Of a DNA stretch of 64,000 bases, positions 17,683-40,501 are shown piece after piece. Both the position numbers and the translations under genes were made by a program. The stretch covers positions 1-64,000 of IMG/VR virus record IMGVR_UViG_3300037247_001314; one strand, written 5' to 3'. The notes beneath the pieces were generated by a model that saw only the letters and a list, made by a program, of their open reading frames with translations, searched no databases and was not told the origin of the DNA. How positions within the stretch are numbered: the stretch's first letter is position 1; each line of letters opens with the position of its first letter. This stretch comes from a virus.

Positions 17683-19122
17683 TTAGGGCTGCCCCTTGAA
17701 GTTGGGGGCTCGACCGATGTTCCGGATGAGTACGGCCTTGCCCGGGGCATAGAGCACCGGAACTCCGTATACTAATTGCATCCAACGGATTGACGTCGAC
17801 ACGGTGGCCAGCGGCACCTTGAGGAATGGCGCCAACTGTTTCCAGCTGAGGCACTCAAGGTTCTGTTGCCAAAGGATGGCGATCGAGGTGAACGGCAAAC
17901 GATCGTTGACATCGTCGAAGGTGAACTCGCCCGCGCCAGCGGTGTTCGGGGTGCGAGCGATCTGCCGTTGTTTGCCAACAGCTCCGCCCTTTTTGGTGCG
18001 GTAGAGTTCGTACCACTTCACGCCGACGGCAGACCCGGGGGTCACACCGAACGTCATCTTGTCGCCTTCAGCAACGGCAATAGCACTGCCGTCGACAGCA
18101 ACGGCAACGCTACGGCCGAAGTCATTGTGCGCGGACACGCTGTAGAAGTAGGAACCTGCGTCTTCAGCGTCAAAGAGCGAGCCAGCGTCGGCCGGGGTTG
18201 TTGCGCCAGTCGAAATCGTTGGTGTCGCAGGACGCTGTGCGGCGTCGCCGGCCGCGGTAGCTTTCGGCGAACCGCCATCATTCACGAAAACATTCGGCTC
18301 AAAAAGCACATCGCCGGCCGGGCTGGTGAAGCCCTTGATATCGAGCCCAACCATCCCGTCCTTGCGCTTGTCCAGAAGGTCGTAGCGCCCCTTCGGGAAG
18401 AAGCTCTTGACGAGGTCAGCCTTAATCTTCGGATTGAGATGCAGGTGGGTCGGAATCCCGAAGTTCGGGTCGTCGCTGATGGTGAGCGCAGCGTCAATGA
18501 GGATGTCCTCGTCGAGCGGCTTACCACGCTGGTCGATGATGTTGTCAGCCGGCGCGTTGTCGGTGATGAGCTTCTCGTAGCCGTCAAACTGAATAGTCGA
18601 CAGCGAAGAGTCAGCGTAGAACAACGCACGCTCGACGATGCGCAAAAGCCACATCGTCCCCGCCACCGTTTCGTTTGCGATGACGTTGCCATGCGCCGGA
18701 CGAATCAAGCTCATCACGTGACTGACTGACCTGGTCGTGCCCAGGAACTTCACGGCCGCGTAGCGTCGAGCGAACGTAGAATCGTCCTCGGGAGGCAGCG
18801 CGCCCTCCGCGATGAAGCCCTCGATTCCTTCGCCGTAGCTCGAAATCTCGTTGTGCTCCTCGACGGTGTTGTACGCCGCGAGCTTGGGAATGGCCTTGAA
18901 CAGCCGGATGTGTTCCATCCGGTAGGTGACGTTCTTCAACGTCTGCTCGAGCGACTCAACGCGCAGAGGGAACCCCTGCCCCGGAGCAGCGCCCGGGTTG
19001 TTGATGTCGTTGCCCGCCGTGAGGGCCTTGTTCAGGTGGTCGAGGTCAGATTCCGAGAACGGATTTCCCGGCCCGAACCCGTCCACCCCGTCGTAGTCCT
19101 TCCAGGACACTTGGTCGATCAT
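17683..19122 (-). CDS. Major capsid protein (SPO1/Twort-like)
   Basis: LNKALTAG, LRVESLEQTLKNVT, KFLGTT, WKQLAPFLKVPLA, LVYGVPVLYAPGK...NIG; AAGGAG RBS. Confidence 0.93.
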   Translation of the reverse strand: MIDQVSWKDYDGVDGFGPGNPFSESDLDHLNKALTAGNDINNPGAAPGQGFPLRVESLEQTLKNVTYRMEHIRLFKAIPKLAAYNTVEEHNEISSYGEGIEGFIAEGALPPEDDSTFARRYAAVKFLGTTRSVSHVMSLIRPAHGNVIANETVAGTMWLLRIVERALFYADSSLSTIQFDGYEKLITDNAPADNIIDQRGKPLDEDILIDAALTISDDPNFGIPTHLHLNPKIKADLVKSFFPKGRYDLLDKRKDGMVGLDIKGFTSPAGDVLFEPNVFVNDGGSPKATAAGDAAQRPATPTISTGATTPADAGSLFDAEDAGSYFYSVSAHNDFGRSVAVAVDGSAIAVAEGDKMTFGVTPGSAVGVKWYELYRTKKGGAVGKQRQIARTPNTAGAGEFTFDDVNDRLPFTSIAILWQQNLECLSWKQLAPFLKVPLATVSTSIRWMQLVYGVPVLYAPGKAVLIRNIGRAPNFKGQP

Positions 19123-19901: not shown

Positions 19902-20744
19902 TCAGAGCCTTCCGTGCTCTGCCAGGGTTTCGAGCGTGCAATATGCGCGCTCTGCGAAAACGTGGTCGGCTCCGGGGAACCGAGTCAAAATGAGGGCGAG
20001 AGCCTCGCTCTTGCTGATGCGCTCGTCTTGCTGCGCCGCAAGGTCTTTCTCGTCGCTCTCCAAAGATTGGGGGGACAAGATGCGACCGGCACCTTCGCCA
20101 GTGGTCGAGCCTTGGGTACTTGGGTGCTCGCCAGCGGGGGCCGCGTTGCCAGTCGTCGCCGTCATAGCCTTGATGGCTTGCTGCGCAGCTTCTTCGTCGC
20201 CCTCTTCGATAGCCACCATGCTCTTCGCCAAACACTCCAGACGAGTACCAAAGCCTATGGGGCAGTTGGTAATAGCGGTGTGCTTTACGATCGCTTCAGC
20301 GACGGTCTTGCGGTTAGGGCCTGTGCGCCGGACGACATCACCCTCGATGGAAAAACCGAGGCGGCGTTCATTGCCCGCTTTTGCGAGAGCACGGCCAAGG
20401 TCCCAAATACGGTTAGCGCGCGGAGTGTCGACCATCCAGCCTTCAGCCCACGTGCCGTTCGCGTCGGCGGTTTGGCCGTCCGGCAGCAACTCGCCTTTTT
20501 GGAAACGACGCACACCCGTGGGATAGCCGAGGGGTGAGTCGGTGTCCTTGCTGTGGTTGTCGTTGAACCAACCACTCTCCAAAAACGGCTTAAAGTTGAG
20601 CCCCTTCTGGACGACGATTTCACCTTGCTTGTCGAGGATGTCTGTCGAAATAATACCAGCGATGCGCCTTCGCATTCCACGCGGACCGCTAGCCTTCTCA
20701 AAGAAGGACAGCGGAGCGAAGAACTTGAAAGGGTCAGCACCCAT
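19902..20744 (-). CDS. Prohead protease
   Basis: ISTDILDKQGE, GWFNDNH, LGFSIEG, AITNCP. Confidence 0.88.
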   Translation of the reverse strand: MGADPFKFFAPLSFFEKASGPRGMRRRIAGIISTDILDKQGEIVVQKGLNFKPFLESGWFNDNHSKDTDSPLGYPTGVRRFQKGELLPDGQTADANGTWAEGWMVDTPRANRIWDLGRALAKAGNERRLGFSIEGDVVRRTGPNRKTVAEAIVKHTAITNCPIGFGTRLECLAKSMVAIEEGDEEAAQQAIKAMTATTGNAAPAGEHPSTQGSTTGEGAGRILSPQSLESDEKDLAAQQDERISKSEALALILTRFPGADHVFAERAYCTLETLAEHGRL

Positions 20745-28881: not shown

Positions 28882-29193
28882 CTACTGAGGAACGACGAAG
28901 GTGACTGCCTTCTTCTTTTTCTTTTTGGGAAAGCTTTTGCTGAGTGCAACCTCCAAGTCGACGTCGTCTGGCAGCGCGTGCTGTTGTGCGAGTTCGCCAT
29001 CAATGCGGATGTCGTAAAAGGTGCCGGCGAGTTCAGGATTCGCCCCTTCAATGAGCAAATCGCGCTTGCCCGCTACCCACGCACGCGCGTAGTCGCCAAG
29101 CACCTTCATGCCCTGCGGCGTGAAAGAGCCGTCGTCGTTCTCCGTCGCTAGCGCTTTCGAAAGCTCGACCGTTATCTGGATGTGCTCAACCAT
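28882..29193 (-). CDS. Hypothetical protein (LSKA/LSKS sites)
   Basis: Coupled to the MuF gene; poly-Lys then AVTFVV tail. Confidence 0.55.
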   Translation of the reverse strand: MVEHIQITVELSKALATENDDGSFTPQGMKVLGDYARAWVAGKRDLLIEGANPELAGTFYDIRIDGELAQQHALPDDVDLEVALSKSFPKKKKKKAVTFVVPQ

Positions 29194-31687
29194 TGCTCGC
29201 CTTCTTTCTAGCGCGGGCTCGTTGCTGGATGAGTTCGTACGCTTTCTCCTGCGTCTTCTGCGCGTTCTTGGTGCGTGTTTCAGCGACGGGGATGTGTGGA
29301 TTGTCCTCGCGGAAGTTCGCTACCAACGTCGTGCCGATGTCTTGGCGCCGATGTTTCTTTGCGACAACGAGGTTGGTACCGTCGTACTTCGCGATGGGCT
29401 TGCCCTCATGTGTCACCACGTAGTTGGCGCGGGTCGCATCGTCGTTGTGCCCACGATGCACTTCGAACTTGCTGCTGTGCCCTTCAACCTTAAACTCCTC
29501 GGGCTTCACGTGCTCAGTAAGCTTGCTGTGCTTGGGCACGAGGTCGCTCGCGTGGCCGGCTTTAGTCCGTTTGGGTTTACCGAGAAACTCTTCGCGGGAC
29601 ATCTCGTGCGCGTGTTTGTCGGCGTAGATGGGCTTTCCAGCCGCAGTGTGCCCCACCACCTTGCCCCCGCGCGAACCTTCTCCAGCCTTGTTCACGAGGT
29701 CAATAGGTTTGCGCTCCCCGTCGCCCTCGATGATGCGCGCGTCGTCGGTCTGCTCGGGGTAGCGCGGTCGGCCTTCCAGTTGCACAGGATGCCACTGACC
29801 CTCTGGCTGCCGTGTTGCTCCGCGGTTGGTCGGCACATCGCGCATCTGGAAGCTCAGGCGCTCCACCTCGCGTTTGTGCTCTTCGGCGCGGTTCTCCGTC
29901 TCATCCGGCGTGATGATGTTCTTCGTGTTCCCGTGTGCGTCGGCGATCGGGTAGATCTGATTGTCGACTCCGCCCCCGAACACATAAATCTCGGGGTCTC
30001 GACGCACGATGACGTCAGCGCGGTGCTGTGCGTCTTGAAGGTACGCAACTACGCCAGCTACGTCGTGTGGGTTGTGGGGTTTGTCTGGAAGGTCGGCTTG
30101 GATGTTCACCCCGCCGCCGCTGCCCTCCTTGAGGATGAACTGTCCGCCGCCAACAGCAAACGCAGCACCGCTCACCCCCTCGACGTGGGGCAACGCTTTG
30201 AAGAGGGTAACTGCTCTCCGGCGAAGTTTTCGGCGCACCGTGAACCGCGCTTCAGGCTCCAGCGGCGCAGGCGGTGGTGCTACAGGCGCAACGTAGTTTG
30301 GGTTGGGGATAATAAACTCAGGTTCCGCTTTCACAAGCTTGCGCGGTTTGTCGCGCGTGGTCGCGAGTTCCGTTTTGAGCTTGTTCATCGACATCGTCGT
30401 CATGCTGCCGAAGAACCCTTTGTCATCGTAGTTGCCAATGTACGCAGCCTTTGCTTCTGCCGCCGACGAGAAGCCCAGCATAATCTTGTCCTCGTCGTAG
30501 CCCTCAAACTTGCCCTCCAACGTCCGCTTGCGCTGATGCACAATGTACGCGCTTGGCGCGAGCGGGTTTGGGCCGACGAAGCAGTCGACGTGGTCTCCGT
30601 CGACGCCAAGCGTGCGCCGGATGTAGCCGTACGGCCAAAGCATGACGGTTGCGCCATCGGTCTTGTTCTTGTGGTCTTTCCAAAACCGGAGGCCTCCCGC
30701 CCCATTCTCAATAGCCACATCAAGCCCCTGGAACTGCAGCTCTCCGTCCAGACGGTACGCCTTCACCAACGCATCCATATGGAGCGCTTCCAGACGCATA
30801 GCCTTCTCAACGTCCTCAGAGTCCCCTTCGTACTCAACGCCAAACTCGCCGGCAGGAATCATCGTGCCGTCCTCGTCGTAACCCCAGCCCGCAGGAACGC
30901 GCACGATTTGGCATTGGCAGTTTGGGTGAATGGCGCCGATGCAGGCCACCCAGTCAGCAGCTTTCTTGCCTACGTTCGCGCCCGGTGGGGCCAACTGCGA
31001 GAGCTTGAAAATGATGGGAGCGCCATCTGGACCGAGGTGGAGGCGCTTGCAATGTTTGCACGCATCCGGCATCGGAATGAGCGAGACGCGCGCTTCGGGG
31101 CCGTACTGTTTACGGAAGCCATCGCCGACACCCTCCTGCATGACGTTGTGGTTTTCGGTGATGGCAATGCGGTCGAGATCCCGCGTCCAATCCTGCATCG
31201 AATGCCCGAGCCTACTTTTGAGAGTCCCTACTGTTTTCCGGGAGGCAATCTTCTCAGCCGTCTCTGTCCGGATTTTACCCTGCAGCTCTCTGCGCTGTGC
31301 GCGGTCTGCCTCGACAAGGACCTGCCCTGTCTGGAGATCGATGGTATTGCCAAGTCCCACGACGTACTGCGCAGCATTTAGCTTTGCTGTCTGGACAGCC
31401 TGCACTTCCACCGCCGACAGTGGGATGGGGTTCTTTGTGAGTTCAGCTTTCACCTTGGCAAGGTCCCACGTCGGCATGTTGGGGTCCTGGAGCTTGGCCA
31501 CCAGCTGGCCGTAGTTGTACGCCGTCTCGAACAGGTCCTCGTGGCCTTCCAAAAGGCCAGCGTCCTGCAGCTCTTTCACCATCTCCGGTGGTATAGCGGC
31601 AGGGCCGAACACGTCGACGACAAAAGCCGCGTTGTGCTTCTGGATGATGTCCTTCACCACGCGCAGGAGCTCGGGAGTGAGTTTCAC
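29186..31687 (-). CDS. MuF (SPP1 gp7-like) head morphogenesis protein fused to inorganic pyrophosphatase-like and GNAT-like domains
   Basis: RIAITE..DACKHC..IHPNCQC (MuF); IENG..YGYIRRTLGVDGDHVDCFVG..DEDKIMLGF (InPase); VVAKKHRRQDIGTTLV (GNAT motif A-like). Confidence 0.85.
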   Translation of the reverse strand: MKLTPELLRVVKDIIQKHNAAFVVDVFGPAAIPPEMVKELQDAGLLEGHEDLFETAYNYGQLVAKLQDPNMPTWDLAKVKAELTKNPIPLSAVEVQAVQTAKLNAAQYVVGLGNTIDLQTGQVLVEADRAQRRELQGKIRTETAEKIASRKTVGTLKSRLGHSMQDWTRDLDRIAITENHNVMQEGVGDGFRKQYGPEARVSLIPMPDACKHCKRLHLGPDGAPIIFKLSQLAPPGANVGKKAADWVACIGAIHPNCQCQIVRVPAGWGYDEDGTMIPAGEFGVEYEGDSEDVEKAMRLEALHMDALVKAYRLDGELQFQGLDVAIENGAGGLRFWKDHKNKTDGATVMLWPYGYIRRTLGVDGDHVDCFVGPNPLAPSAYIVHQRKRTLEGKFEGYDEDKIMLGFSSAAEAKAAYIGNYDDKGFFGSMTTMSMNKLKTELATTRDKPRKLVKAEPEFIIPNPNYVAPVAPPPAPLEPEARFTVRRKLRRRAVTLFKALPHVEGVSGAAFAVGGGQFILKEGSGGGVNIQADLPDKPHNPHDVAGVVAYLQDAQHRADVIVRRDPEIYVFGGGVDNQIYPIADAHGNTKNIITPDETENRAEEHKREVERLSFQMRDVPTNRGATRQPEGQWHPVQLEGRPRYPEQTDDARIIEGDGERKPIDLVNKAGEGSRGGKVVGHTAAGKPIYADKHAHEMSREEFLGKPKRTKAGHASDLVPKHSKLTEHVKPEEFKVEGHSSKFEVHRGHNDDATRANYVVTHEGKPIAKYDGTNLVVAKKHRRQDIGTTLVANFREDNPHIPVAETRTKNAQKTQEKAYELIQQRARARKKASNG

Positions 31688-32070
31688 CCGAGACGCTCGT
31701 AGCGCGGGTTACCGGGGCCCCATCCCGGTACGACACGAACGGCACGCGCCCTACGCGCCTTTGGCTTGAAAATACGGCGCCACCACGGCACGCGACCAAC
31801 GCGCACGATCTTGTCTACGACGTTGTACGCGGCTGTCTTCGGGATGTCCTTCCAGTACGCAATGTGTTCCACACTAAAAGTGACGTTCTTCGGTGCCGAA
31901 AATCTCAGGCGGGGATCGGGTGTAAAAAACGCGATGGTGCGGCCGTCGTTTACGAACGGCTCAGGAAGCTTAGGCGCGGGCTTCTGTCCAAGCTCAAGGT
32001 TCGCTGTGAGCATTGCTGCGGCGAGGCCAACACCGAGCTTTGCCAAAAATCCTCGTCGTGTGTCGCTCAT
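31684..32070 (-). CDS. Tat-signal protein containing a major-capsid-like peptide
   Basis: MSDTRRGFLAKLGVGLAAAML; KNVTFSVEHIAYWKDIPKTAAYNVV. Confidence 0.6.
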   Translation of the reverse strand: MSDTRRGFLAKLGVGLAAAMLTANLELGQKPAPKLPEPFVNDGRTIAFFTPDPRLRFSAPKNVTFSVEHIAYWKDIPKTAAYNVVDKIVRVGRVPWWRRIFKPKARRARAVRVVPGWGPGNPRYERLG

Positions 32071-32522
32071 GTTGCGTTCCCATCTTTCACGAGCGCAGAT
32101 TTCAACAAGCCGCAAAGCTCGTTGACGCTCATACCGTAAAGCGGGCCGTCTTCCTCGAAGTCTTCGTCGGTGTGCCCTTGCGCAATGAGCGCCGCCTTCA
32201 TCTTAGCAAATGCAGCTTCCTCAATGGCCACTACTTTTGCGGTGTAGTCGGGGCTCTCGCTTTTGATGGTGTGGTCGTCGACCGCTTGGAGAATCTCCGC
32301 CACCATGCGGTCGTACCCTCTGGTCGCGCGTGAGCGCATGCTCCCGTGAAGTTCACGGAGCGCTTGGTGCTTGAGCACGGGTTCGTGCGCGTGCAGGGAA
32401 GCCTTCTGGAGCGCGTTGGCGAGCTCGGGCGCATCGACTGCAAGCGCCTTCGCGAGTTCGTCGAGAAGGTCAGAGCCGCGCTCTGCGAGTTCCCCTTTGG
32501 TGGCGTCCAGACGTAGCCTCAT
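32067..32522 (-). CDS. Hypothetical head-module protein
   Basis: Coupled ORF (MRLRLDATKGE) with LAKA, LQKA and LLKS sites. Confidence 0.55.
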   Translation of the reverse strand: MRLRLDATKGELAERGSDLLDELAKALAVDAPELANALQKASLHAHEPVLKHQALRELHGSMRSRATRGYDRMVAEILQAVDDHTIKSESPDYTAKVVAIEEAAFAKMKAALIAQGHTDEDFEEDGPLYGMSVNELCGLLKSALVKDGNAT

Positions 32523-32926
32523 GGCGTTATGGGATCTCCCCACACCGCCCAAAGGAGTCGCAGGTCTGCAAGCGGAGTGACCTTCAGCGACGTGACGATA
32601 GCCTCCATGAACACTTTCGCGTCTGGAGCTTTAGGCGCGGTGGCTACGTCGGTCTGTCCTCGACGCACCTGGATGACTTGCCCGCTGTTGTTGATTTCTA
32701 GGTCGAAGTCGTTATCGGCTCGCAAGAAAAAACCGTAGATGGTGGTGGGGCCACCGAGGGGGACATCAAACTCGCCGGCAGCAAGAGTGATGTCCCTGGT
32801 GTCGTTGCCCTGGCTAGCGAAGCCGTCGAGGATGGTCTCCGCTAGGACGTCGCTCAGTCCGAGCAAGATGGAGGTGCCATCTTTGTCCTCAGTGAAACGT
32901 GGGTTGACGGTGTGTCGAATGCGCAT
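32519..32926 (-). CDS. Hypothetical virion protein
   Basis: GGAGG RBS; beta-rich; directly after the portal. Confidence 0.55.
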   Translation of the reverse strand: MRIRHTVNPRFTEDKDGTSILLGLSDVLAETILDGFASQGNDTRDITLAAGEFDVPLGGPTTIYGFFLRADNDFDLEINNSGQVIQVRRGQTDVATAPKAPDAKVFMEAIVTSLKVTPLADLRLLWAVWGDPITP

Positions 32927-32935
32927 AGCGCCTCC

Positions 32936-34852
32936 CTACAGGTCGAGGTCAATGTGCAAAACTGCGGCTCGGCGCTCGGCCTTCTTCAGTTTCGTAGCAA
33001 GGTGTGCGCGCTGGCCATCATACTGATCGGCGAGGGCGGACTCTCGCGCTGCGTGCGCCTTGTACTGCACAGCTAGGGCGCGAGCTTGGTCCCGCTCCAC
33101 TTTCAAATCGTGAATGGGCTGCCCCTTGCGTAGCGCCGCATCCGCGCGCATGGCCTCGGTAGGTGAGTGCGTCCAGAGACCGTCGGCGCTCTGAAGCCAA
33201 CCATCCATCCATCCCATCGACTTCGCAGCCGCATCAGGCTTAGCAGGCTTGCCGGGAGGACCACCCTCAACGTTGTTGCTTGCGCCTTCGTCGTCAGCCG
33301 CGTTCTCATTCTGGATGCCATCGAGTTCGCCGCCGAAGCCGTCGTCTTCCTCGCCAGGCTCGGGGGGAGGGGCGAAGTCGCCGACCTCCATGTCCTGCTG
33401 AGCGGCCATCGTCTTGTTCTGCATCCAGACAGGGTTGAGGATGACCTCGCCTTCGCCGTCTGGAAGCGGTGGCAAGTCTTCTTCGGCACGCACTTCGTCC
33501 ACGGTCTTGTACGACGACACGAGCTTGGTGTTGAGGTCTGCGAGCTCCTCGGGCGACGCAGCGTCGAGCCCCACGAAAGCAAACTCGAAGTCCTCGTCGA
33601 TGCGGTGGACGAGGTACGACGACAACCGGTGCGCGATGAACCGAAGCAGCGGTTGCAGCCCTTTGTCTTTCGAGTTCGCGAGCTTCTGTTTGTTGTTGCT
33701 CTCAAACATCGACGATGCGCCGCCGCTGTCGCCGTACTTGAAGTTGATTTCAAGCGGGTCCATCCCATAAATGGCGCACGCAACCTTGATGAGGAAATCG
33801 AACCACGCGCTAAACTCCATGTCTTTGTTGGACTCTTGGAGCTTGATGTATTCCAGACCTTCGGCGTTGGTGATGGGAGTTTTGAACGCGTTCTCGATGC
33901 CGGCGACCATCGAGTACCAGTGTCGACGGAAAGCGCGCAGCTGGCGCTCAGGCACCGCACCCTTGAAGTTGATGATGCCCTTGGAGCTTGTGCCTTGACT
34001 GAAAAACTTTTGGTTGTAGTCCCATGACCAAAGCAGCGACGTCACCGTCGTGATGAGCATCTCCGTCTCAGCAACGCCGTAGCCTTGGTTGCGAATGTCG
34101 GTGACGGGGTTGCGGATGCCGAAGCACAGTTGGTCCGCGCCATACTCCGCGGTGACGAGGCCATCATAAATCTGGACGTAGCGCGTCTCGTCTGGGTTCC
34201 CTTGGTAGTGGAGCTTGGTGGTGTCTGCGATGCGCAACGTAGCGCCGTCGACGGCGTAGAAGTCGAAGGGTTTGTGCCCGCGGTCTTCGCGCACCTCAAA
34301 ACCCATCTGGTCGTAGGTGAGCGCGTCGCGAGTGATTTTGCGAAGGAACGTCTCAAAGTTGTCACGGGCGTTCGGGGTAGCCTCGTCAGCCACCTTGCCC
34401 GTCGTCATCATCCAGTTGGTGATTTCTTTGCTCATCTTCTCGCTGGCACGAGAGGGGGCTGCCTTGCGGTCGCGCAGCTGAATGCGGAAACCTGTCTGGA
34501 ACTTATCCTCTTGCGGCATCGAGAACGACGCCAGCTGGTCGGTGCGAGTTTTGATTATCGCCTGGAGGATGGGCATGCGAAAGACCATCGCCTGCAGCGT
34601 CGAATAGCTGATGGAGCTCGGGCGCTCTTTATACCCGAGCGCGTCGATGACGCTGAACGGGTCCCAAAAAAGTGCCTTAGGCTCCGCCGTGGGGTCGCCA
34701 ATCTCCGACGGGTGCATTGCAGCGGTCGCAGGTGTGTTCTCCGACGGCTGTGCACCATCGTCGTCCTCGTCACCCTGAGCTTTGGCGAGGACGTCGAGGG
34801 CAGCTACCGAAGCAGCGCCCGCGGCGTCTCGCATGGTATCGAACAACCCCAA
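32936..34852 (-). CDS. Portal protein
   Basis: IIKTRTDQ, RDALTYDQ, FYAVDGATLR, YNQKFFSQG, NKDMEFSAW, SKDKGLQPLL, TVDEVRAEEDLPPL. Confidence 0.92.
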   Translation of the reverse strand: MGLFDTMRDAAGAASVAALDVLAKAQGDEDDDGAQPSENTPATAAMHPSEIGDPTAEPKALFWDPFSVIDALGYKERPSSISYSTLQAMVFRMPILQAIIKTRTDQLASFSMPQEDKFQTGFRIQLRDRKAAPSRASEKMSKEITNWMMTTGKVADEATPNARDNFETFLRKITRDALTYDQMGFEVREDRGHKPFDFYAVDGATLRIADTTKLHYQGNPDETRYVQIYDGLVTAEYGADQLCFGIRNPVTDIRNQGYGVAETEMLITTVTSLLWSWDYNQKFFSQGTSSKGIINFKGAVPERQLRAFRRHWYSMVAGIENAFKTPITNAEGLEYIKLQESNKDMEFSAWFDFLIKVACAIYGMDPLEINFKYGDSGGASSMFESNNKQKLANSKDKGLQPLLRFIAHRLSSYLVHRIDEDFEFAFVGLDAASPEELADLNTKLVSSYKTVDEVRAEEDLPPLPDGEGEVILNPVWMQNKTMAAQQDMEVGDFAPPPEPGEEDDGFGGELDGIQNENAADDEGASNNVEGGPPGKPAKPDAAAKSMGWMDGWLQSADGLWTHSPTEAMRADAALRKGQPIHDLKVERDQARALAVQYKAHAARESALADQYDGQRAHLATKLKKAERRAAVLHIDLDL

Positions 34853-34860
34853 GGGAACCT

Positions 34861-37371
34861 CTAGTCGTCGAAGGAAAGCCCATCTGGAGCGTAGACGTCA
34901 CGGCCGGGAACCGGCCGGCGAAGGCCAGGACCCTTGCTGTGGGTCTGCGGCACTCCAGACGCGGGTGCTGGCGACATGCTCTTTTGCATCGTTCCAGACA
35001 GTCGGTCAACCCCACACTCGGGGCACTTGGTCAGCGCCTTCATCACCTGCGTGTTGCAAGCGGGGCACGCTTGGCTCTTGGTAAGGTCGTTGCCCAAGTC
35101 AAAGCCGGGCTGCCGACCGTGGTAGCCGAACGAATCTTTGTCGCTGTTGAGCAGCTCCATACAATCTTGGTCGCTGATATCCGTCATGATGATGCCGCCC
35201 TTCATCATGACCTTTATCTGACGACCATTTTGCAGCGGGGCCTCTTGGCTGGGGCCCACCCCGAGACCCAACTGAACGTCGGCTTCGCCCTTGCGCATCG
35301 CTTGGACAGCAGCGGCACGACGCTGTTGCTCGGCGATGACCTCAACGTCGGCGTGCAGAGGCATGCCGGTCTGCGCGTCGAGGCCGCTCTTGGAGAAAAG
35401 CTTTGAGGAGCTTTCGTTCTGGTGCAGGCCTGGCGAGCCAACTTGGGGGTTGCTTCCAGACGGAGCGCCGGGGCTCATTCCAGACGCACCGCCATGGACG
35501 TCGTGCGTCTTAGCTCGCAACGAGCTTTGGTTGCCGGTATGATTCGGGCCGTAAGCGGGCCCCCCTTGGCTGCGCTTTTCCCCAAGACCAGCGGCGCCGG
35601 TCTGTGGGCTCGACGCTGAGGCTGCGGCCGAGCTTGGGTGGCCTGGCATCGGAGCAGTCGCATCACCGTAGGCGTTGCCTCCCTGGCTGGCTGCTGAGCG
35701 CTGCGCGCCCTGTGCGCCGTACGCGCTCGCGGGAGCTCCAGGGATGATAATCATCCCGTGCTCGTCCTTCATCTTGTCGGTGTCGTTGGGGTCGTCGGGT
35801 GTGAACTGATCGGTCGTTCCCGTCTTTCCAGACACAAGGCTGTTTTGTGGCACGTCAGGCCCTCCTTGATTAGCGCCGTAAGCGTCGCCGGCAGCGCTGT
35901 TCACTTCATTGATTCCAGACGCGCCAGTGCGAACTGCCGGTCCTCCGCCGATGCCCCCATGAGCTCCGACGCCATCGAGCCTACCACCTTCCTCGGTGCG
36001 GCTCACTTCGACGTTACCGGCGTAGCCATTGCGCTCGTCGAGGCCTTGCCGCACACCCTTTGGTAGGGGCTTACCGGTCTTGCCCATTCCGTAGTCCCCG
36101 GTGCCCGGCCCGAGATTACCTTTTCGAAGCCAATCGACAAGGCCGCCGTTGTCGCTCGCAAAACTCTTCTTGGTGTCGTCGGGCACAAGAATGCCCCCCA
36201 CTTTCTTCATCCCATACTTAGCAGCGGAGAGGCCTTGTCGCACAACTGCGCCATCCCCTGAGACGGCATCCTTGCCCGTGTGCTTCTTATGCAAATGATG
36301 GTCGTGGTCACCAGCTTTGGCTTCGTCGTGAAAATCGTCCGCCATGCGCTTAGCTGCGGCAGCACGGGTAGCGGGGTCAAACGCATGGGAGCCACCACCT
36401 CCTGCGCCGCCCATGTCCTTCTTGTATTTCTGTGAAGCGCTCGCAAGTAGGTGCCCGTAGAGCTTCGTTGCTTGAGCGTGATCGTATTTTCCAGACGCCA
36501 TTTTATTGACGAGGTTTTTTCGAATCGGCTCGTGCTGTTGGCGGTGCAGATCGCCGTCGTTCTCCGTGAACATCTGGAGTTCGCGGCTTCCTTCCGCGTC
36601 GTGGTGCTTTGCTGTTGGCGCTGACTTGCCCGAGTGTTTCTTGTCACTCCAAGGGATCTTGTGTGCGGGGTCCGCCCACTTGCCGCCGCGGGCTCCTATG
36701 TACGGGCCCGCTTTGCTGAGGCTATCGCCCTCCTCGACGAGGCCAGCGTAGCTCTTGGAGAACGTGTCTTCAGCAGCGACATCAAGCGCATCGGCTTCAC
36801 CGGCATCGCTGAGCCAAGCGTTGAGCCCCTTATTCATCTCAGAGTAGTCGCCGCCCTTGGCCGCCATTGGTGGGGGGCCTTCGTTGCTCTCGGCGCCTTC
36901 TTCTTTCGCAGCTTCGGCTTCCGCTTCGTCTGGAGCGTTCGCATCCACACCGTCGTCGTCACCATCGGCTTCCGTGCCACCTTCAACGTTTTTCTGCTCA
37001 GCCGGTTTGTCGCTACCGGTCCCACCTTTGAGAAGGTAGTCGAAGCCACTGGAGTCCATTGCGCGTGCTGCGGGCGCGGGAGCGACTGGGGCGGGTGCTC
37101 GAGCGGGCGCTGCAGTTTCCCCACCCTTTTCCAGACGCTCGCTTTTGGCAATGTGCCACTCGTAGCGCTGTTGATGGGCGGTGGTTTGCTCATCGTCGAC
37201 AAGACCGAGCACGACTTCGTCAGGTGCGTCTTGGCTCTTATGCAGGGCACGGGAGGCGTCGCGTGCGAGCGCATGCGCATCGGCGGCACTCTTATGGAGA
37301 GCAAGCGTGTCGTGCTGGACCGCTTGAGCGGTGGCTTCTTGGGCCTTATCGGCGAGGTCGGCGTATTTCAT
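34861..37371 (-). CDS. Low-complexity polyprotein with many hxK[AGS] sites (probable internal head protein)
   Basis: More than 15 such sites; KAGPYIGARGGKW tag; ELQMFTENDGDL..KNLVNK..GKYD module; C-terminal CPAC..CPECG. Confidence 0.65.
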   Translation of the reverse strand: MKYADLADKAQEATAQAVQHDTLALHKSAADAHALARDASRALHKSQDAPDEVVLGLVDDEQTTAHQQRYEWHIAKSERLEKGGETAAPARAPAPVAPAPAARAMDSSGFDYLLKGGTGSDKPAEQKNVEGGTEADGDDDGVDANAPDEAEAEAAKEEGAESNEGPPPMAAKGGDYSEMNKGLNAWLSDAGEADALDVAAEDTFSKSYAGLVEEGDSLSKAGPYIGARGGKWADPAHKIPWSDKKHSGKSAPTAKHHDAEGSRELQMFTENDGDLHRQQHEPIRKNLVNKMASGKYDHAQATKLYGHLLASASQKYKKDMGGAGGGGSHAFDPATRAAAAKRMADDFHDEAKAGDHDHHLHKKHTGKDAVSGDGAVVRQGLSAAKYGMKKVGGILVPDDTKKSFASDNGGLVDWLRKGNLGPGTGDYGMGKTGKPLPKGVRQGLDERNGYAGNVEVSRTEEGGRLDGVGAHGGIGGGPAVRTGASGINEVNSAAGDAYGANQGGPDVPQNSLVSGKTGTTDQFTPDDPNDTDKMKDEHGMIIIPGAPASAYGAQGAQRSAASQGGNAYGDATAPMPGHPSSAAASASSPQTGAAGLGEKRSQGGPAYGPNHTGNQSSLRAKTHDVHGGASGMSPGAPSGSNPQVGSPGLHQNESSSKLFSKSGLDAQTGMPLHADVEVIAEQQRRAAAVQAMRKGEADVQLGLGVGPSQEAPLQNGRQIKVMMKGGIIMTDISDQDCMELLNSDKDSFGYHGRQPGFDLGNDLTKSQACPACNTQVMKALTKCPECGVDRLSGTMQKSMSPAPASGVPQTHSKGPGLRRPVPGRDVYAPDGLSFDD

Positions 37372-38566: not shown

Positions 38567-40501
38567 CTACCATTCAAAATCCTTATTGCCGAGTCCTGGC
38601 AAATGGCGCCAGGCGAGTTCATCTGGATGCAGCTGGTCGTCTGGCACGAGGGAGGCCTCCTGCGCTGACCGTGTTGCTCGCGGGCCCACAAGATTCTCGA
38701 CGGTGAGGTGCTGAGCGATAAAGTCTTTGATGGCGTCCTTAGGCGCGTCCTCGATTTCGACGTCGCCGCCCCACTCCTGCAGCAAGTCGCCCACAGGGTC
38801 GTCCCCCCACTGTGCTGCGTCCGGCTCGACCATCTGTTGGTCCAGGAGTTGGTCAAGGCTGAGGTCGTCGTCGCCCTCCTCACCAAAGGAGAAGCCAAAG
38901 GCCCCTGCCCTGACCGCGCAGTTAGCGATCCAGAAAGCCATCACCGTGTCGTCGTGAGAGCCGACGCCTTGGAGCTTGCCCTCCAGCCACGTGAAGTGCC
39001 GCATTTCCTTTATCCAGATGTCGCTCTTCTCGACGCTCTCTTGGTCGCCGCGGGGAATGCGCACCTTCGCGTTTTCCAGCAACACGCGCAGCTGGGGCAC
39101 GCCGCCTTCGAGGGTGTTTTTGTTCATCGTGTGCGTGTTGCCTGAAGGTTGCGCCGAGTTTGACTTCTTGGTTCCAGACGTCACGAACTTGTAGATGGGC
39201 AGGTCAGTCTCGCGGATGAGGTCATCAGCAAAGATGCGTTGCATTTGATTCGATTCCAGATAGATGAGGTCAGCGTCGTACTTTCGCCCGAGTGCGTTGA
39301 TGAGTCCCAGTTGTTGTTTGTATTCCAGACCGTGGTGGCGTTGGATGTCGATGATCCATCTGTTGCGTGCTTGGTCCAGACCGAGGACGAAGCCGACGGT
39401 GTAGTCCGCCCCCGTCGACGTCGAGATGGCGAAGTCGAAACCAATGTAGAAGCTCGTGATGCCGAGCTCCTCGTAGTACGCACGCGTCTGCCCCATCTTC
39501 ACGCCCAGCTGCTCGGTAGGCGACCCTCGGAAGAGTCGGCCGGGGAACAAGCTCATCTCGTCGCTGATGGGCTCGCACATGAACTCGCGCGTGAAGCGCA
39601 CGCTCTTGATTTCGAGTTCGCGCTCTTCGAGAGACTCGACGACAATGCCTTGTTCCAAGTAGCGAAGCCGTTCGGCCTTCGTCGCGCAGAATCGCTCGGG
39701 CCACAGCGCCTCACCTGCCAGATTGCGTGCTGCGTATTTGCGGTAGCAGTAGCGTTTGTTCTCAGCGAGGTCAGCGTAGAGGTCGGCCGCGTGGAACGGT
39801 GTGCCCACGACGATGACCTGGCCGCCAGGGTTCACCATGTTTGTGATGGCCGTGTAGAAGTAGTCTATGTGCTTGTTGCGAACGAGTTCGCTATACGCGT
39901 CCTCGTCGTTGAGCCCGTCGTCGACGACGATCCAGTCAGGGTGGGCTCCGCGGATCTTGGTGCCGAAACCGCGCGCGTAGATTTTATGGCCGTTGGCCAA
40001 AGTGATCTGAGTCTTGCTCCAGTTGCGCGCTTTGTTCTTCGGGTTGAGGAACGCAAGCTTGGGGTTGCTCTCAATCTCCTCTTTGATGTCTTCGAGGATT
40101 CGAACAGCCTGCTCTTGCGTCGCCGAGAAGATGTAACCTCGACCACCAGGCATGAACGCCGCTTTCCAAATAGGAAAAGCGAAGTCGAAGAAAAATGTTT
40201 TTCCGTGATTTCTCGGGGCCAACACGCAGATGCGGTCTTCTTTGGCGACGAGTTCGTCCCACTCCATGTGGTGTTCGGCGACGATGAAATGGCTGTTGTA
40301 GGGAGCCTGCACTGGCCCAGACAGACACTCGCTCGCGAAGAAAGCGCATGACTCCCGCATCATCTCGATGGTGAGCGCGTCCCAGTCGTCGTCGCCACCT
40401 TCGACCGCAGCGTGGGCACGACGTTCTACAGCGTCGTCGTCCCACTCGGGAACGCCGCTACTAAAGAGCTCACCAAATCCGTTAGCCGGCATTGCCATCA
40501 T
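38567..40501 (-). CDS. terL: Terminase large subunit
   Basis: Walker A APRNHGKT, Walker B WIVVDD, VGTPF, FTREFMC, nuclease IGFDFA..DYT and HDDTVMA. Confidence 0.95.
   Translation of the reverse strand: MMAMPANGFGELFSSGVPEWDDDAVERRAHAAVEGGDDDWDALTIEMMRESCAFFASECLSGPVQAPYNSHFIVAEHHMEWDELVAKEDRICVLAPRNHGKTFFFDFAFPIWKAAFMPGGRGYIFSATQEQAVRILEDIKEEIESNPKLAFLNPKNKARNWSKTQITLANGHKIYARGFGTKIRGAHPDWIVVDDGLNDEDAYSELVRNKHIDYFYTAITNMVNPGGQVIVVGTPFHAADLYADLAENKRYCYRKYAARNLAGEALWPERFCATKAERLRYLEQGIVVESLEERELEIKSVRFTREFMCEPISDEMSLFPGRLFRGSPTEQLGVKMGQTRAYYEELGITSFYIGFDFAISTSTGADYTVGFVLGLDQARNRWIIDIQRHHGLEYKQQLGLINALGRKYDADLIYLESNQMQRIFADDLIRETDLPIYKFVTSGTKKSNSAQPSGNTHTMNKNTLEGGVPQLRVLLENAKVRIPRGDQESVEKSDIWIKEMRHFTWLEGKLQGVGSHDDTVMAFWIANCAVRAGAFGFSFGEEGDDDLSLDQLLDQQMVEPDAAQWGDDPVGDLLQEWGGDVEIEDAPKDAIKDFIAQHLTVENLVGPRATRSAQEASLVPDDQLHPDELAWRHLPGLGNKDFEW

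Follow-up and report, generated by a model that had tools for sequence, protein, structure and literature searches.

A small head-operon protein of a marine sediment phage pairs a candidate twin-arginine signal with a piece related to the capsid N-arm

We analyzed a 64,000-nt stretch of viral DNA (hereafter the window), which is the first 64 kb of the 106.8-kb IMG/VR record IMGVR_UViG_3300037247_001314, a record that is rated 99% complete and was assembled from marine sediment metagenomic DNA. The head operon of this phage contains a gene of 128 codons plus a stop (31684-32070, minus strand), whose product, P0001, begins with a twin-arginine (Tat)-type N-terminus and contains a piece that is homologous to the N-terminal arm (N-arm) of the phage's own major capsid protein (MCP, P0002; 479 aa, 17683-19122, minus strand). 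We tentatively favor the reading that P0001 is a partial duplicate of the 5' end of the capsid gene that may have become a Tat-targeted accessory protein of the membrane or periplasm. Below we present the alignments, substitution patterns and structure predictions on which this proposal is based, and weigh it against the other roles that P0001 could have.

A translated search of the 106.8-kb genome identified the MCP gene as the only other place that matches P0001 (E = 1.6e-5), and an all-against-all BLASTP comparison of its 791 six-frame open reading frames (ORFs) placed the P0001/MCP pair at the top of only three inter-ORF matches (E = 2.4e-5). When the two proteins were aligned directly by BLASTP, P0001 residues 61-87 were identical to MCP residues 63-89 at 16 of 27 positions without gaps (E = 8e-8); this stretch contains the 16 of 25 identical residues reported in an earlier, sequence-only reading of this DNA. 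A hidden Markov model (HMM) of MCP residues 44-100 from 15 family members matched P0001 with an E-value of 8.7e-10. The match to the family HMM exceeds that to the resident MCP because P0001 agrees with the family consensus at positions where the resident MCP departs from it, such as a Trp in place of the resident Phe. Profile-profile alignment with hhalign of both small proteins, P0001 and its sister-phage orthologue P0003, against the N-termini of 15 MCPs gave a probability of 98.2% (E = 5.6e-14) and was collinear, with columns 47-96 aligned to columns 47-96. By these alignments the capsid-like part of P0001 comprises residues 46-93 (31792..31935, minus strand), with a core at residues 61-87 (31810-31890), and they identify the similarity as genuine homology to SPO1-type MCP N-arms. 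The 81 nt of DNA that encode the core are 68% identical to the MCP gene, and the same codon is used at 10 of the 16 identical residues. This divergence indicates an old copy and agrees with the earlier statement that the piece is not a recent copy of the resident gene.

At 128 aa, P0001 lacks the complete HK97 fold (E-loop, P-domain and A-domain; ~450-480 residues) and has no phrog or Pfam match. The 34 other short proteins with a capsid N-arm that we recovered were all N-terminal capsid fragments that lacked a signal and lay at the end of a contig or at a shared break point. Among such metagenomic fragments (P0030, P0031 and P0033-P0036), we observed that several capsid ORFs stop right after the conserved motif A-Y-N-T-V, at MCP residue 87, and continue with unrelated residues on contigs of up to 15 kb. 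This break suggests that introns, inteins or endonucleases have repeatedly inserted at one site of the capsid gene.

The MCP itself is of the SPO1 Gp6.1/phi812 type (phrog_752, E = 2e-83). It matches SPO1 Gp6.1 (PDB accession number: 9vel) with an E-value of 1e-80 and phi812 (PDB accession number: 5lii) with an E-value of 1e-25, and is at most ~37% identical to any protein of a cultured phage. Residues L30, K32, A33 and L34 are invariant in 15 MCP family members, and in 9row the mature chain of the phi812 type begins at a point 24 residues into the 5lii precursor, which corresponds to approximately residue 33-35 of the window MCP. With the maturation cut placed at Lys32|Ala33, the MCP segment homologous to P0001 (residues 46-95 by hhalign columns; 18838..18987, minus strand) is the N-arm that opens the mature HK97-fold chain, and it begins ~13 residues past the cut. 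An AlphaFold2 (AF2) model of the MCP, built on a 9-row alignment, had a mean predicted local distance difference test (pLDDT) score of 41, and its insertion domain alone was confident. As this model is too poor to show contacts of the N-arm, the assignment draws on the alignment to 9vel, 5lii and 9row.

The N-terminus of P0001 (residues 1-31; 31978..32070, minus strand) has the features of a Tat-type signal or anchor. Residues 4-23 score 17.4 bits on the NCBIfam model TIGR01409, for which the curated cutoff is 16.7, and the layout comprises a short n-region, the motif T-R-R-G-F-L (residues 4-9; both Arg codons at 32053-32058, minus strand), a Gly/Ala-rich h-region (residues 12-25; 31996-32037, minus strand) with 14 uncharged residues in both orthologues, and a conserved Lys-Pro. 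Of the 791 ORFs in the genome, no other has a Tat-like N-terminus, and the same T-R-R-G-F-L motif is present in P0003. AF2 predicted helices at residues 4-11 and 14-28. As the segment fits the Tat consensus and is strongly conserved, we consider real Tat targeting of P0001 likely, with an uncleaved signal-anchor as likely as a cleaved signal. The previous assignment of TRRGFL and the following hydrophobic stretch as a twin-arginine signal is supported by the TIGR01409 score and by selection, which is strongest in this part of the protein.

We considered two other identities and set both aside. An HMM of MCP residues 1-45 scored residues 1-46 of both small proteins no higher than 3000 shuffled sequences, so that a diverged capsid propeptide has only collinearity in its favor. 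A lysis protein with a signal-arrest-release (SAR) or other signal-anchor segment, such as a SAR endolysin or pinholin, would share the Gly/Ala-rich helix, but does not fit a protein with no catalytic domain and no second hydrophobic segment whose gene lies in the head operon.

Our homologue searches covered ~15 billion proteins. An exhaustive phmmer search of 1.84 billion cluster representatives recovered one homologue, P0003; word-seeded searches returned only P0001 itself, and scanning IMG/VR and 185,579 species genomes for sequence patterns added no member. P0003 is a 142-aa protein encoded in the same slot of the sister phage (G001), which has a 110-kb genome with terminal repeats. It keeps the Tat-type N-terminus, and its residues 48-96 align to MCP residues 47-95 at 41% identity (E = 5e-12). 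The sequence-only reading had hinged in part on whether homologues keep the capsid segment; the sole homologue keeps it, over 49 residues.

In other relatives, more than 60 phage loci in all, we found no counterpart of this gene. In a phage whose portal is 62% identical (L003), the slot is 375 bp long without a related ORF. A profile of the N-arm, run on 39 portal-anchored metagenomic loci and on the five metagenome-assembled genomes (MAGs) with the closest capsids, recovered only full capsid genes and proteases, and 41 portal-anchored loci contained no Tat-like ORF and no N-arm-bearing ORF except P0003. In other phages the slot, which lies between a counterpart of the 161-aa ORF upstream of the P0001 gene and the gene of a MuF-like minor head protein, holds unrelated small ORFs or nothing, so it is a hot spot for accessory genes. 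In one relative (L012:9652-10074, plus strand) we observed that it holds a 140-aa P-loop (kinase-like) ORF, and in others unrelated ORFs of 70-107 aa. As the gene is absent from all examined relatives but one and the content of the slot varies, the P0001 gene is accessory, occupies a variable slot and does not encode a core assembly factor, which argues against a general role in assembly.

P0001 is the fastest-evolving gene product of the head module, with 36% identity to its sister-phage orthologue, compared with 57% for the 135-aa ORF, 64% for the 161-aa ORF, 79% for the MuF-like protein, 83% for the portal, 80% for the protease and 90% for the MCP. We compared the proportions of nonsynonymous (pN) and synonymous (pS) differences between the orthologues using Nei-Gojobori counts. 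The signal (residues 1-31) has a pN of 0.18 and a pS of 0.72, with 23 of 31 residues identical, and both Arg codons of the RR pair differ synonymously between the two phages. The corresponding values are 0.58 and 0.65 for the linker, 0.43 and 0.45 for the capsid-like part, and 0.44 and 0.65 for the tail. These counts indicate that the signal is strongly constrained and that the body of P0001 is close to neutral. The N-arm segment of the MCP, on the other side of the comparison, is 100% identical between the two phages, with saturated synonymous sites (pS of 0.70). When the 27-residue core was compared to this invariant MCP, pN and pS were 0.26 and 0.57 for P0001, and 0.40 and 0.70 for P0003, which points to moderate constraint on the N-arm core in the P0001 lineage and weak constraint in the P0003 lineage.

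The two orthologues share only ~9 of 27 residues with each other in this segment, fewer than the 16 of 27 that P0001 shares with the MCP, and they have kept different halves of the N-arm. Decay from a capsid-like ancestor under moderate constraint fits this pattern better than does a maintained mimic. The earlier proposal that P0001 is an exported or membrane-anchored capsid mimic finds no support in these data; the protein is near-neutral outside the signal and predicted to be disordered.

Beyond the N-terminal helices, AF2 modeled no structure for P0001 (mean pLDDT of 48, from a 12-row alignment); the ESM Atlas model had a pLDDT of 0.34, and the ESM Atlas contained no usable neighbor for the mature part. 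This part is hydrophilic, with 20 Lys and Arg among 96 residues and an isoelectric point (pI) of 11.4; the pI for P0003 is 9.9. It ends in a very basic tail rich in Arg, Lys, Trp and Pro (residues 94-128; 31687..31791, minus strand) that is predicted to be disordered. A complex prediction with mature MCP (residues 33-479, 9-row alignment) and P0001 residues 31-128 gave no answer (score of 0.00 against a mark of 0.32) and is evidence neither way.

The tail also contains a second, separate resemblance to the capsid protein. Residues 114-125 (31696-31731, minus strand) match residues 13-24 of the MCP propeptide (19051-19086, minus strand) at 8 of 12 positions, including G-P-G-N-P, a score that 0 of 300 shuffles reached. 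Only 20 of the 36 nt are identical, and all third codon positions of the shared pentapeptide differ. G-P-G-N-P occurs only in the MCP of the window phage and, of the two orthologues, only in P0001. This match is not collinear with the main N-arm match.

The head module of the window comprises minus-strand genes from 17.6 to 40.5 kb, and includes the large terminase (38567-40501), an 836-aa protein (34861-37371), the 638-aa portal (32936-34852), the 135-aa and 161-aa ORFs (the latter at 32067-32552), P0001, an 833-aa MuF/SPP1-gp7-like minor head protein with an InPase domain (29186-31687), a 2465-aa protein, the prohead protease (19902-20744), a scaffold-like ORF and the MCP. The ATG of the P0001 gene overlaps the stop codon of the upstream 161-aa ORF (ATGA), and its stop codon overlaps the GTG start of the downstream MuF-like gene (GTGA). 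As its start and stop both overlap neighbors, the gene is embedded in the operon by translational coupling on both sides. The closest cultured relatives of the terminase and capsid are only 30-38% identical. The window has a G+C content of 58.5%, and within its 64 kb there are no tRNAs and no sign of lysogeny. The sequence is present in one DNA run, probably the source sample, and no RNA run is among the holders listed.

The closest capsid relatives are found in MAGs labeled Myxococcales, Latescibacterota, Lentisphaeria and Planctomycetota, all diderm phyla, although these labels are weak evidence because of binning. Closest relatives at 60-63% identity lie inside chromosome-level MAG records (L048, CP070713.1, Myxococcales; L049, CP070677.1, Latescibacterota), and this location may hint at host phyla or may be an assembly or binning artifact.

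Several other features of the head proteins were observed. The 836-aa and 833-aa proteins share a ~27-residue motif around G-P-R-G-G-K-W-x-D that is 74% identical across phages and is present in several copies in large proteins of L003 (4466-7033 and 7408-10866); it may be a common tag of head-packaged polyvalent proteins. The first ~40 residues of the 161-aa ORF form the N-terminus of far larger proteins in relatives (L040:10623-11576, L028:12765-17573, L043:1327-1590 and L003:4466-7033), so this ORF looks like a detachable leader module. The sister-phage portal (L004:10001-13042, plus strand) has 1013 aa compared to 638 aa in the window phage, as it contains a ~375-residue insert with intein- or homing-endonuclease-like features after residue ~285. 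A 646-aa ORF without a family match (L007:3616-5556, minus strand; genome positions 67616-69556) contains a stretch, residues 503-532, that is identical to portal residues 293-322 at 14 of 30 positions (E = 1.4e-4). This pair ranks second among the inter-ORF matches of the genome, and is another example of part of a core protein residing within a different protein.

A further observation bears on what a capsid piece could do outside the capsid. We found that in relatives the prohead protease contains, 40-70 residues before its C-terminus, a copy of the capsid sequence extending from the maturation site (K|A-L-x-A-G) into the beginning of the N-arm. In L026 (16764-17528, plus strand) this copy is identical to the phage's own MCP at 23 of 38 positions (E = 3e-11). 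It was also detected in the proteases of L040 (11943-12827, plus strand; E = 1e-5), L011 (7070-8125, plus strand; E = 0.003), L010 (17960-18799, plus strand; E = 0.003) and L077 (1342-2118, minus strand); the profile E-value for a phage in a Planctomycetota MAG is 1e-5. The window's own protease has a weak counterpart (20040-20177, minus strand) that is not significant (E = 1.2). Capsid N-terminal modules are thus reused in non-capsid head proteins of this phage group, and the stretch in the proteases is probably a self-cleavage site combined with a docking module. The part of the module that is shared with the proteases is kept in P0003 and lost from P0001.

From these data, we tentatively propose the following origin and role for P0001. 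We take its gene to be a genuine accessory gene of one lineage, transcribed together with the head genes. The capsid piece is equally far from the N-terminus in both kinds of protein, which leads us to infer a partial duplication of the 5' end, specifically the first ~100 codons, of an SPO1-type capsid gene. In the copy, the stretch at the position of the acidic propeptide would now be a Tat signal or signal-anchor. Late in infection, the host Tat pathway would take the small, basic, unstructured P0001 to or across the cytoplasmic membrane; small unstructured hydrophilic proteins are a kind of substrate that Tat can carry. The selected activity would reside in the targeting segment and the basic tail, and the N-arm piece would be a remnant under moderate constraint that has decayed in part, as opposed to a capsid copy that is maintained. 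The presence of unrelated small ORFs in the same slot elsewhere, as in a moron-like accessory slot, lends this proposal further support, and the diderm labels of the MAGs with the closest capsid relatives lend it weak support.

Several points weigh against this proposal. P0003 scores only 12.8 bits on TIGR01409, below the cutoff of 16.7, and the Pfam TAT_signal model has no match in P0001. By inspection, no Ala-x-Ala site lies at the end of the h-region, and the only A-x-A occurs early, before Met20. A mature pI above 11 is unusual for a periplasmic protein. It is atypical for a signal to be more conserved than its passenger, so the N-terminus may do something more specific than routing, and the N-arm core, whose evolution compared to the MCP departs from neutrality, may still have a binding partner. 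The first 46 residues have no detectable similarity to the propeptide, and duplication of the whole 5' end is argued from collinearity only. In addition, the position of the gene in the head operon beside head-packaged polyvalent proteins, together with the protease precedent, fits docking to proheads. Of the earlier interpretation as a whole, we retain the signal, the homology and the age of the copy, and not the mimicry, the decoy or the assembly anchor.

Prohead docking is the main alternative, a possible but doubtful role for P0001 in which the N-arm piece brings this small basic protein into the assembling prohead with the capsid protein, scaffold or protease. P0001 could then be an internal DNA-binding or ejected protein, and its N-terminal 30 residues may be a propeptide or a segment that acts on membranes after ejection. 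The capsid stretch in the proteases of relatives, exemplified by L026, is the main support for such targeting of P0001 and P0003 to proheads. It is joined by the translational coupling of the gene between those for the portal and the InPase-bearing, MuF-like polyvalent head protein, the retention in P0003 of the module part common to the proteases, a basic disordered tail that suits DNA contact inside the head, and fast evolution and a patchy distribution resembling those of T4 internal proteins (PMC9958956). However, docking does not account for the good fit of the N-terminus to the Tat consensus, nor for its being better conserved than the rest of the protein. Lys30, conserved in both orthologues, is followed by Pro, whereas the site in the capsid and proteases is Lys|Ala-Leu; P0001 lacks the half of the module that the proteases share; and the resemblance in the window's own protease is not significant. 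It is unlikely, in our view, that the two features work together, with the N-arm piece as a functional docking strand on a Tat-type anchor that, late in infection, couples a head component (capsid subunits or protease) to the membrane or Tat translocon, or that allows a bound partner to be exported by hitch-hiking on Tat.

The remaining explanations each account for fewer of the observations. The sequence-only reading had suggested an anchor for prohead assembly at the membrane, and one could envisage a nucleator like T4 gp40 with its membrane-bound portal initiator, whose N-arm piece recruits capsid subunits. A membrane-targeting N-terminus and a capsid piece encoded in a head operon directly downstream of the portal are in keeping with this, as is the start of T4 proheads on the inner membrane with the aid of a viral chaperone (PMC9958956). 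We judge such an anchor to be quite unlikely, as the gene is found in two phages only and is absent from L003 and ~40 relatives with the same head genes, so that it is not generally required; moreover, a Tat signal would place the capsid-like part on the periplasmic side, and the body is weakly constrained. A decoy or sponge for a defense that senses the N-terminal region of the capsid, or an interference factor against related phages, was also suggested. Rapid evolution is typical of conflict genes, the homologous capsid segment is invariant between the two phages, and the genome has a second ORF with a short portal piece. A decoy should nonetheless track the invariant segment, and P0003 is only 33-41% identical to it, with different halves lost in the two orthologues. 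Known capsid sensors are cytoplasmic, and export by a Tat signal would remove the decoy from them; as the gene belongs to the late operon, its expression would coincide with that of the real capsid protein rather than precede it; and no defense or anti-defense family matched. We therefore consider this role very unlikely.

P0001 could instead be an uncleavable pseudo-substrate that regulates the prohead protease, since its capsid-like stretch follows a Lys-Pro where the capsid has its Lys|Ala cut. Lys30 is two residues off the position of capsid Lys32, the Lys-Pro is invariant in both orthologues, and the presence of the same capsid module in relatives' proteases suggests recognition by the protease. 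Nevertheless, residues 1-46 resemble the capsid N-terminus no better than shuffled sequences do, relatives do without the gene, and the Tat signal is left unexplained, making regulation of this kind highly improbable. Finally, P0001 could be a functionless young or decaying ORF, left over from the partial duplication of the capsid gene and open by chance or through its neighbors' coupling. The near-neutral residues 32-128, the lack of a fold and the existence of only two members would be expected of such a leftover. This is quite improbable given that the frame is open in both phages despite saturated synonymous sites and several indels, that residues 1-31 are under strong purifying selection, and that the N-arm core is moderately constrained. 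The earlier alternative of a chance capture of a gene fragment thus holds in part: a partial gene duplication is the probable source of the piece, yet selection acts on the ORF.

We compared P0001 to the known systems that it most resembles. Its N-terminus is like Tat signals and uncleaved Tat signal-anchors (TIGR01409) in its T-R-R-x-F-L motif, uncharged Gly/Ala-rich h-region and the basic residues that follow. Its passenger is not a folded or cofactor-bearing enzyme but a 97-residue disordered, very basic capsid fragment; it also differs in lacking a clear Ala-x-Ala and in having a signal more conserved than the passenger, and its export is a prediction. To the SPO1/Twort-type MCP (9vel, 5lii), it is related through ~50 homologous residues that start ~13 past the maturation cut. 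Unlike the MCP, P0001 is the arm only, with no E-loop, P-domain or A-domain, and cannot form a shell; the small proteins carry K-P at the position that corresponds to the invariant L-x-K|A-L site of the capsid family.

The internal proteins of T4 enter the prohead through a short N-proximal capsid-targeting sequence (PMC9958956). Like P0001, they are small, basic, fast-evolving and encoded among head genes. Their targeting sequence, however, is ~10 residues long, is not derived from the capsid and is removed by the protease, whereas the candidate module of P0001 is a homologue of the capsid N-arm with no evident cleavage site, and the protein has an export-like N-terminus. There is also some likeness to the capsid or scaffold look-alikes of satellites, SaPI CpmB and PICI Ccm, in that a protein sharing a segment used in head assembly could compete for its contacts. 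CpmB and Ccm are satellite-encoded, cytoplasmic proteins without an export signal that hijack the capsid of a helper phage, and Ccm is homologous to the capsid protein over its full length. A last comparison is with morons and superinfection-exclusion genes (lambda bor and lom; HK97 gp15), which as a rule come with a promoter or terminator of their own and act in lysogens. P0001 resembles them as a small, putative membrane or periplasmic protein, patchy in distribution and fast-evolving, from a variable slot in a structural operon, and differs in that its gene is coupled within the head operon of a phage whose window bears no sign of lysogeny, and is built from a capsid fragment. In the literature, we found no phage protein in which a Tat signal and a capsid N-arm are combined, and nothing directly relevant on head proteins with Tat signals or on capsid decoys.

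Based on these comparisons, we would rate P0001 as the product of a phage accessory gene probably born from a fragment of a structural gene. With two members, both in uncultured phages, its general importance is limited unless analogues appear elsewhere. If the N-arm piece docks to the head, it would be a capsid-derived targeting module that, together with the stretch in the proteases, could be used for loading proteins into SPO1-like heads, and either a docking strand held at the membrane or hitch-hiking on Tat would mean that a phage can put part of its own capsid gene to use in a manner that is new. If P0001 is exported, this phage would have made an envelope-targeted accessory protein from the 5' end of its own capsid gene, a clear example of how partially duplicating a structural gene can give rise to a new one, and its head operon would encode a Tat substrate, which is rare.

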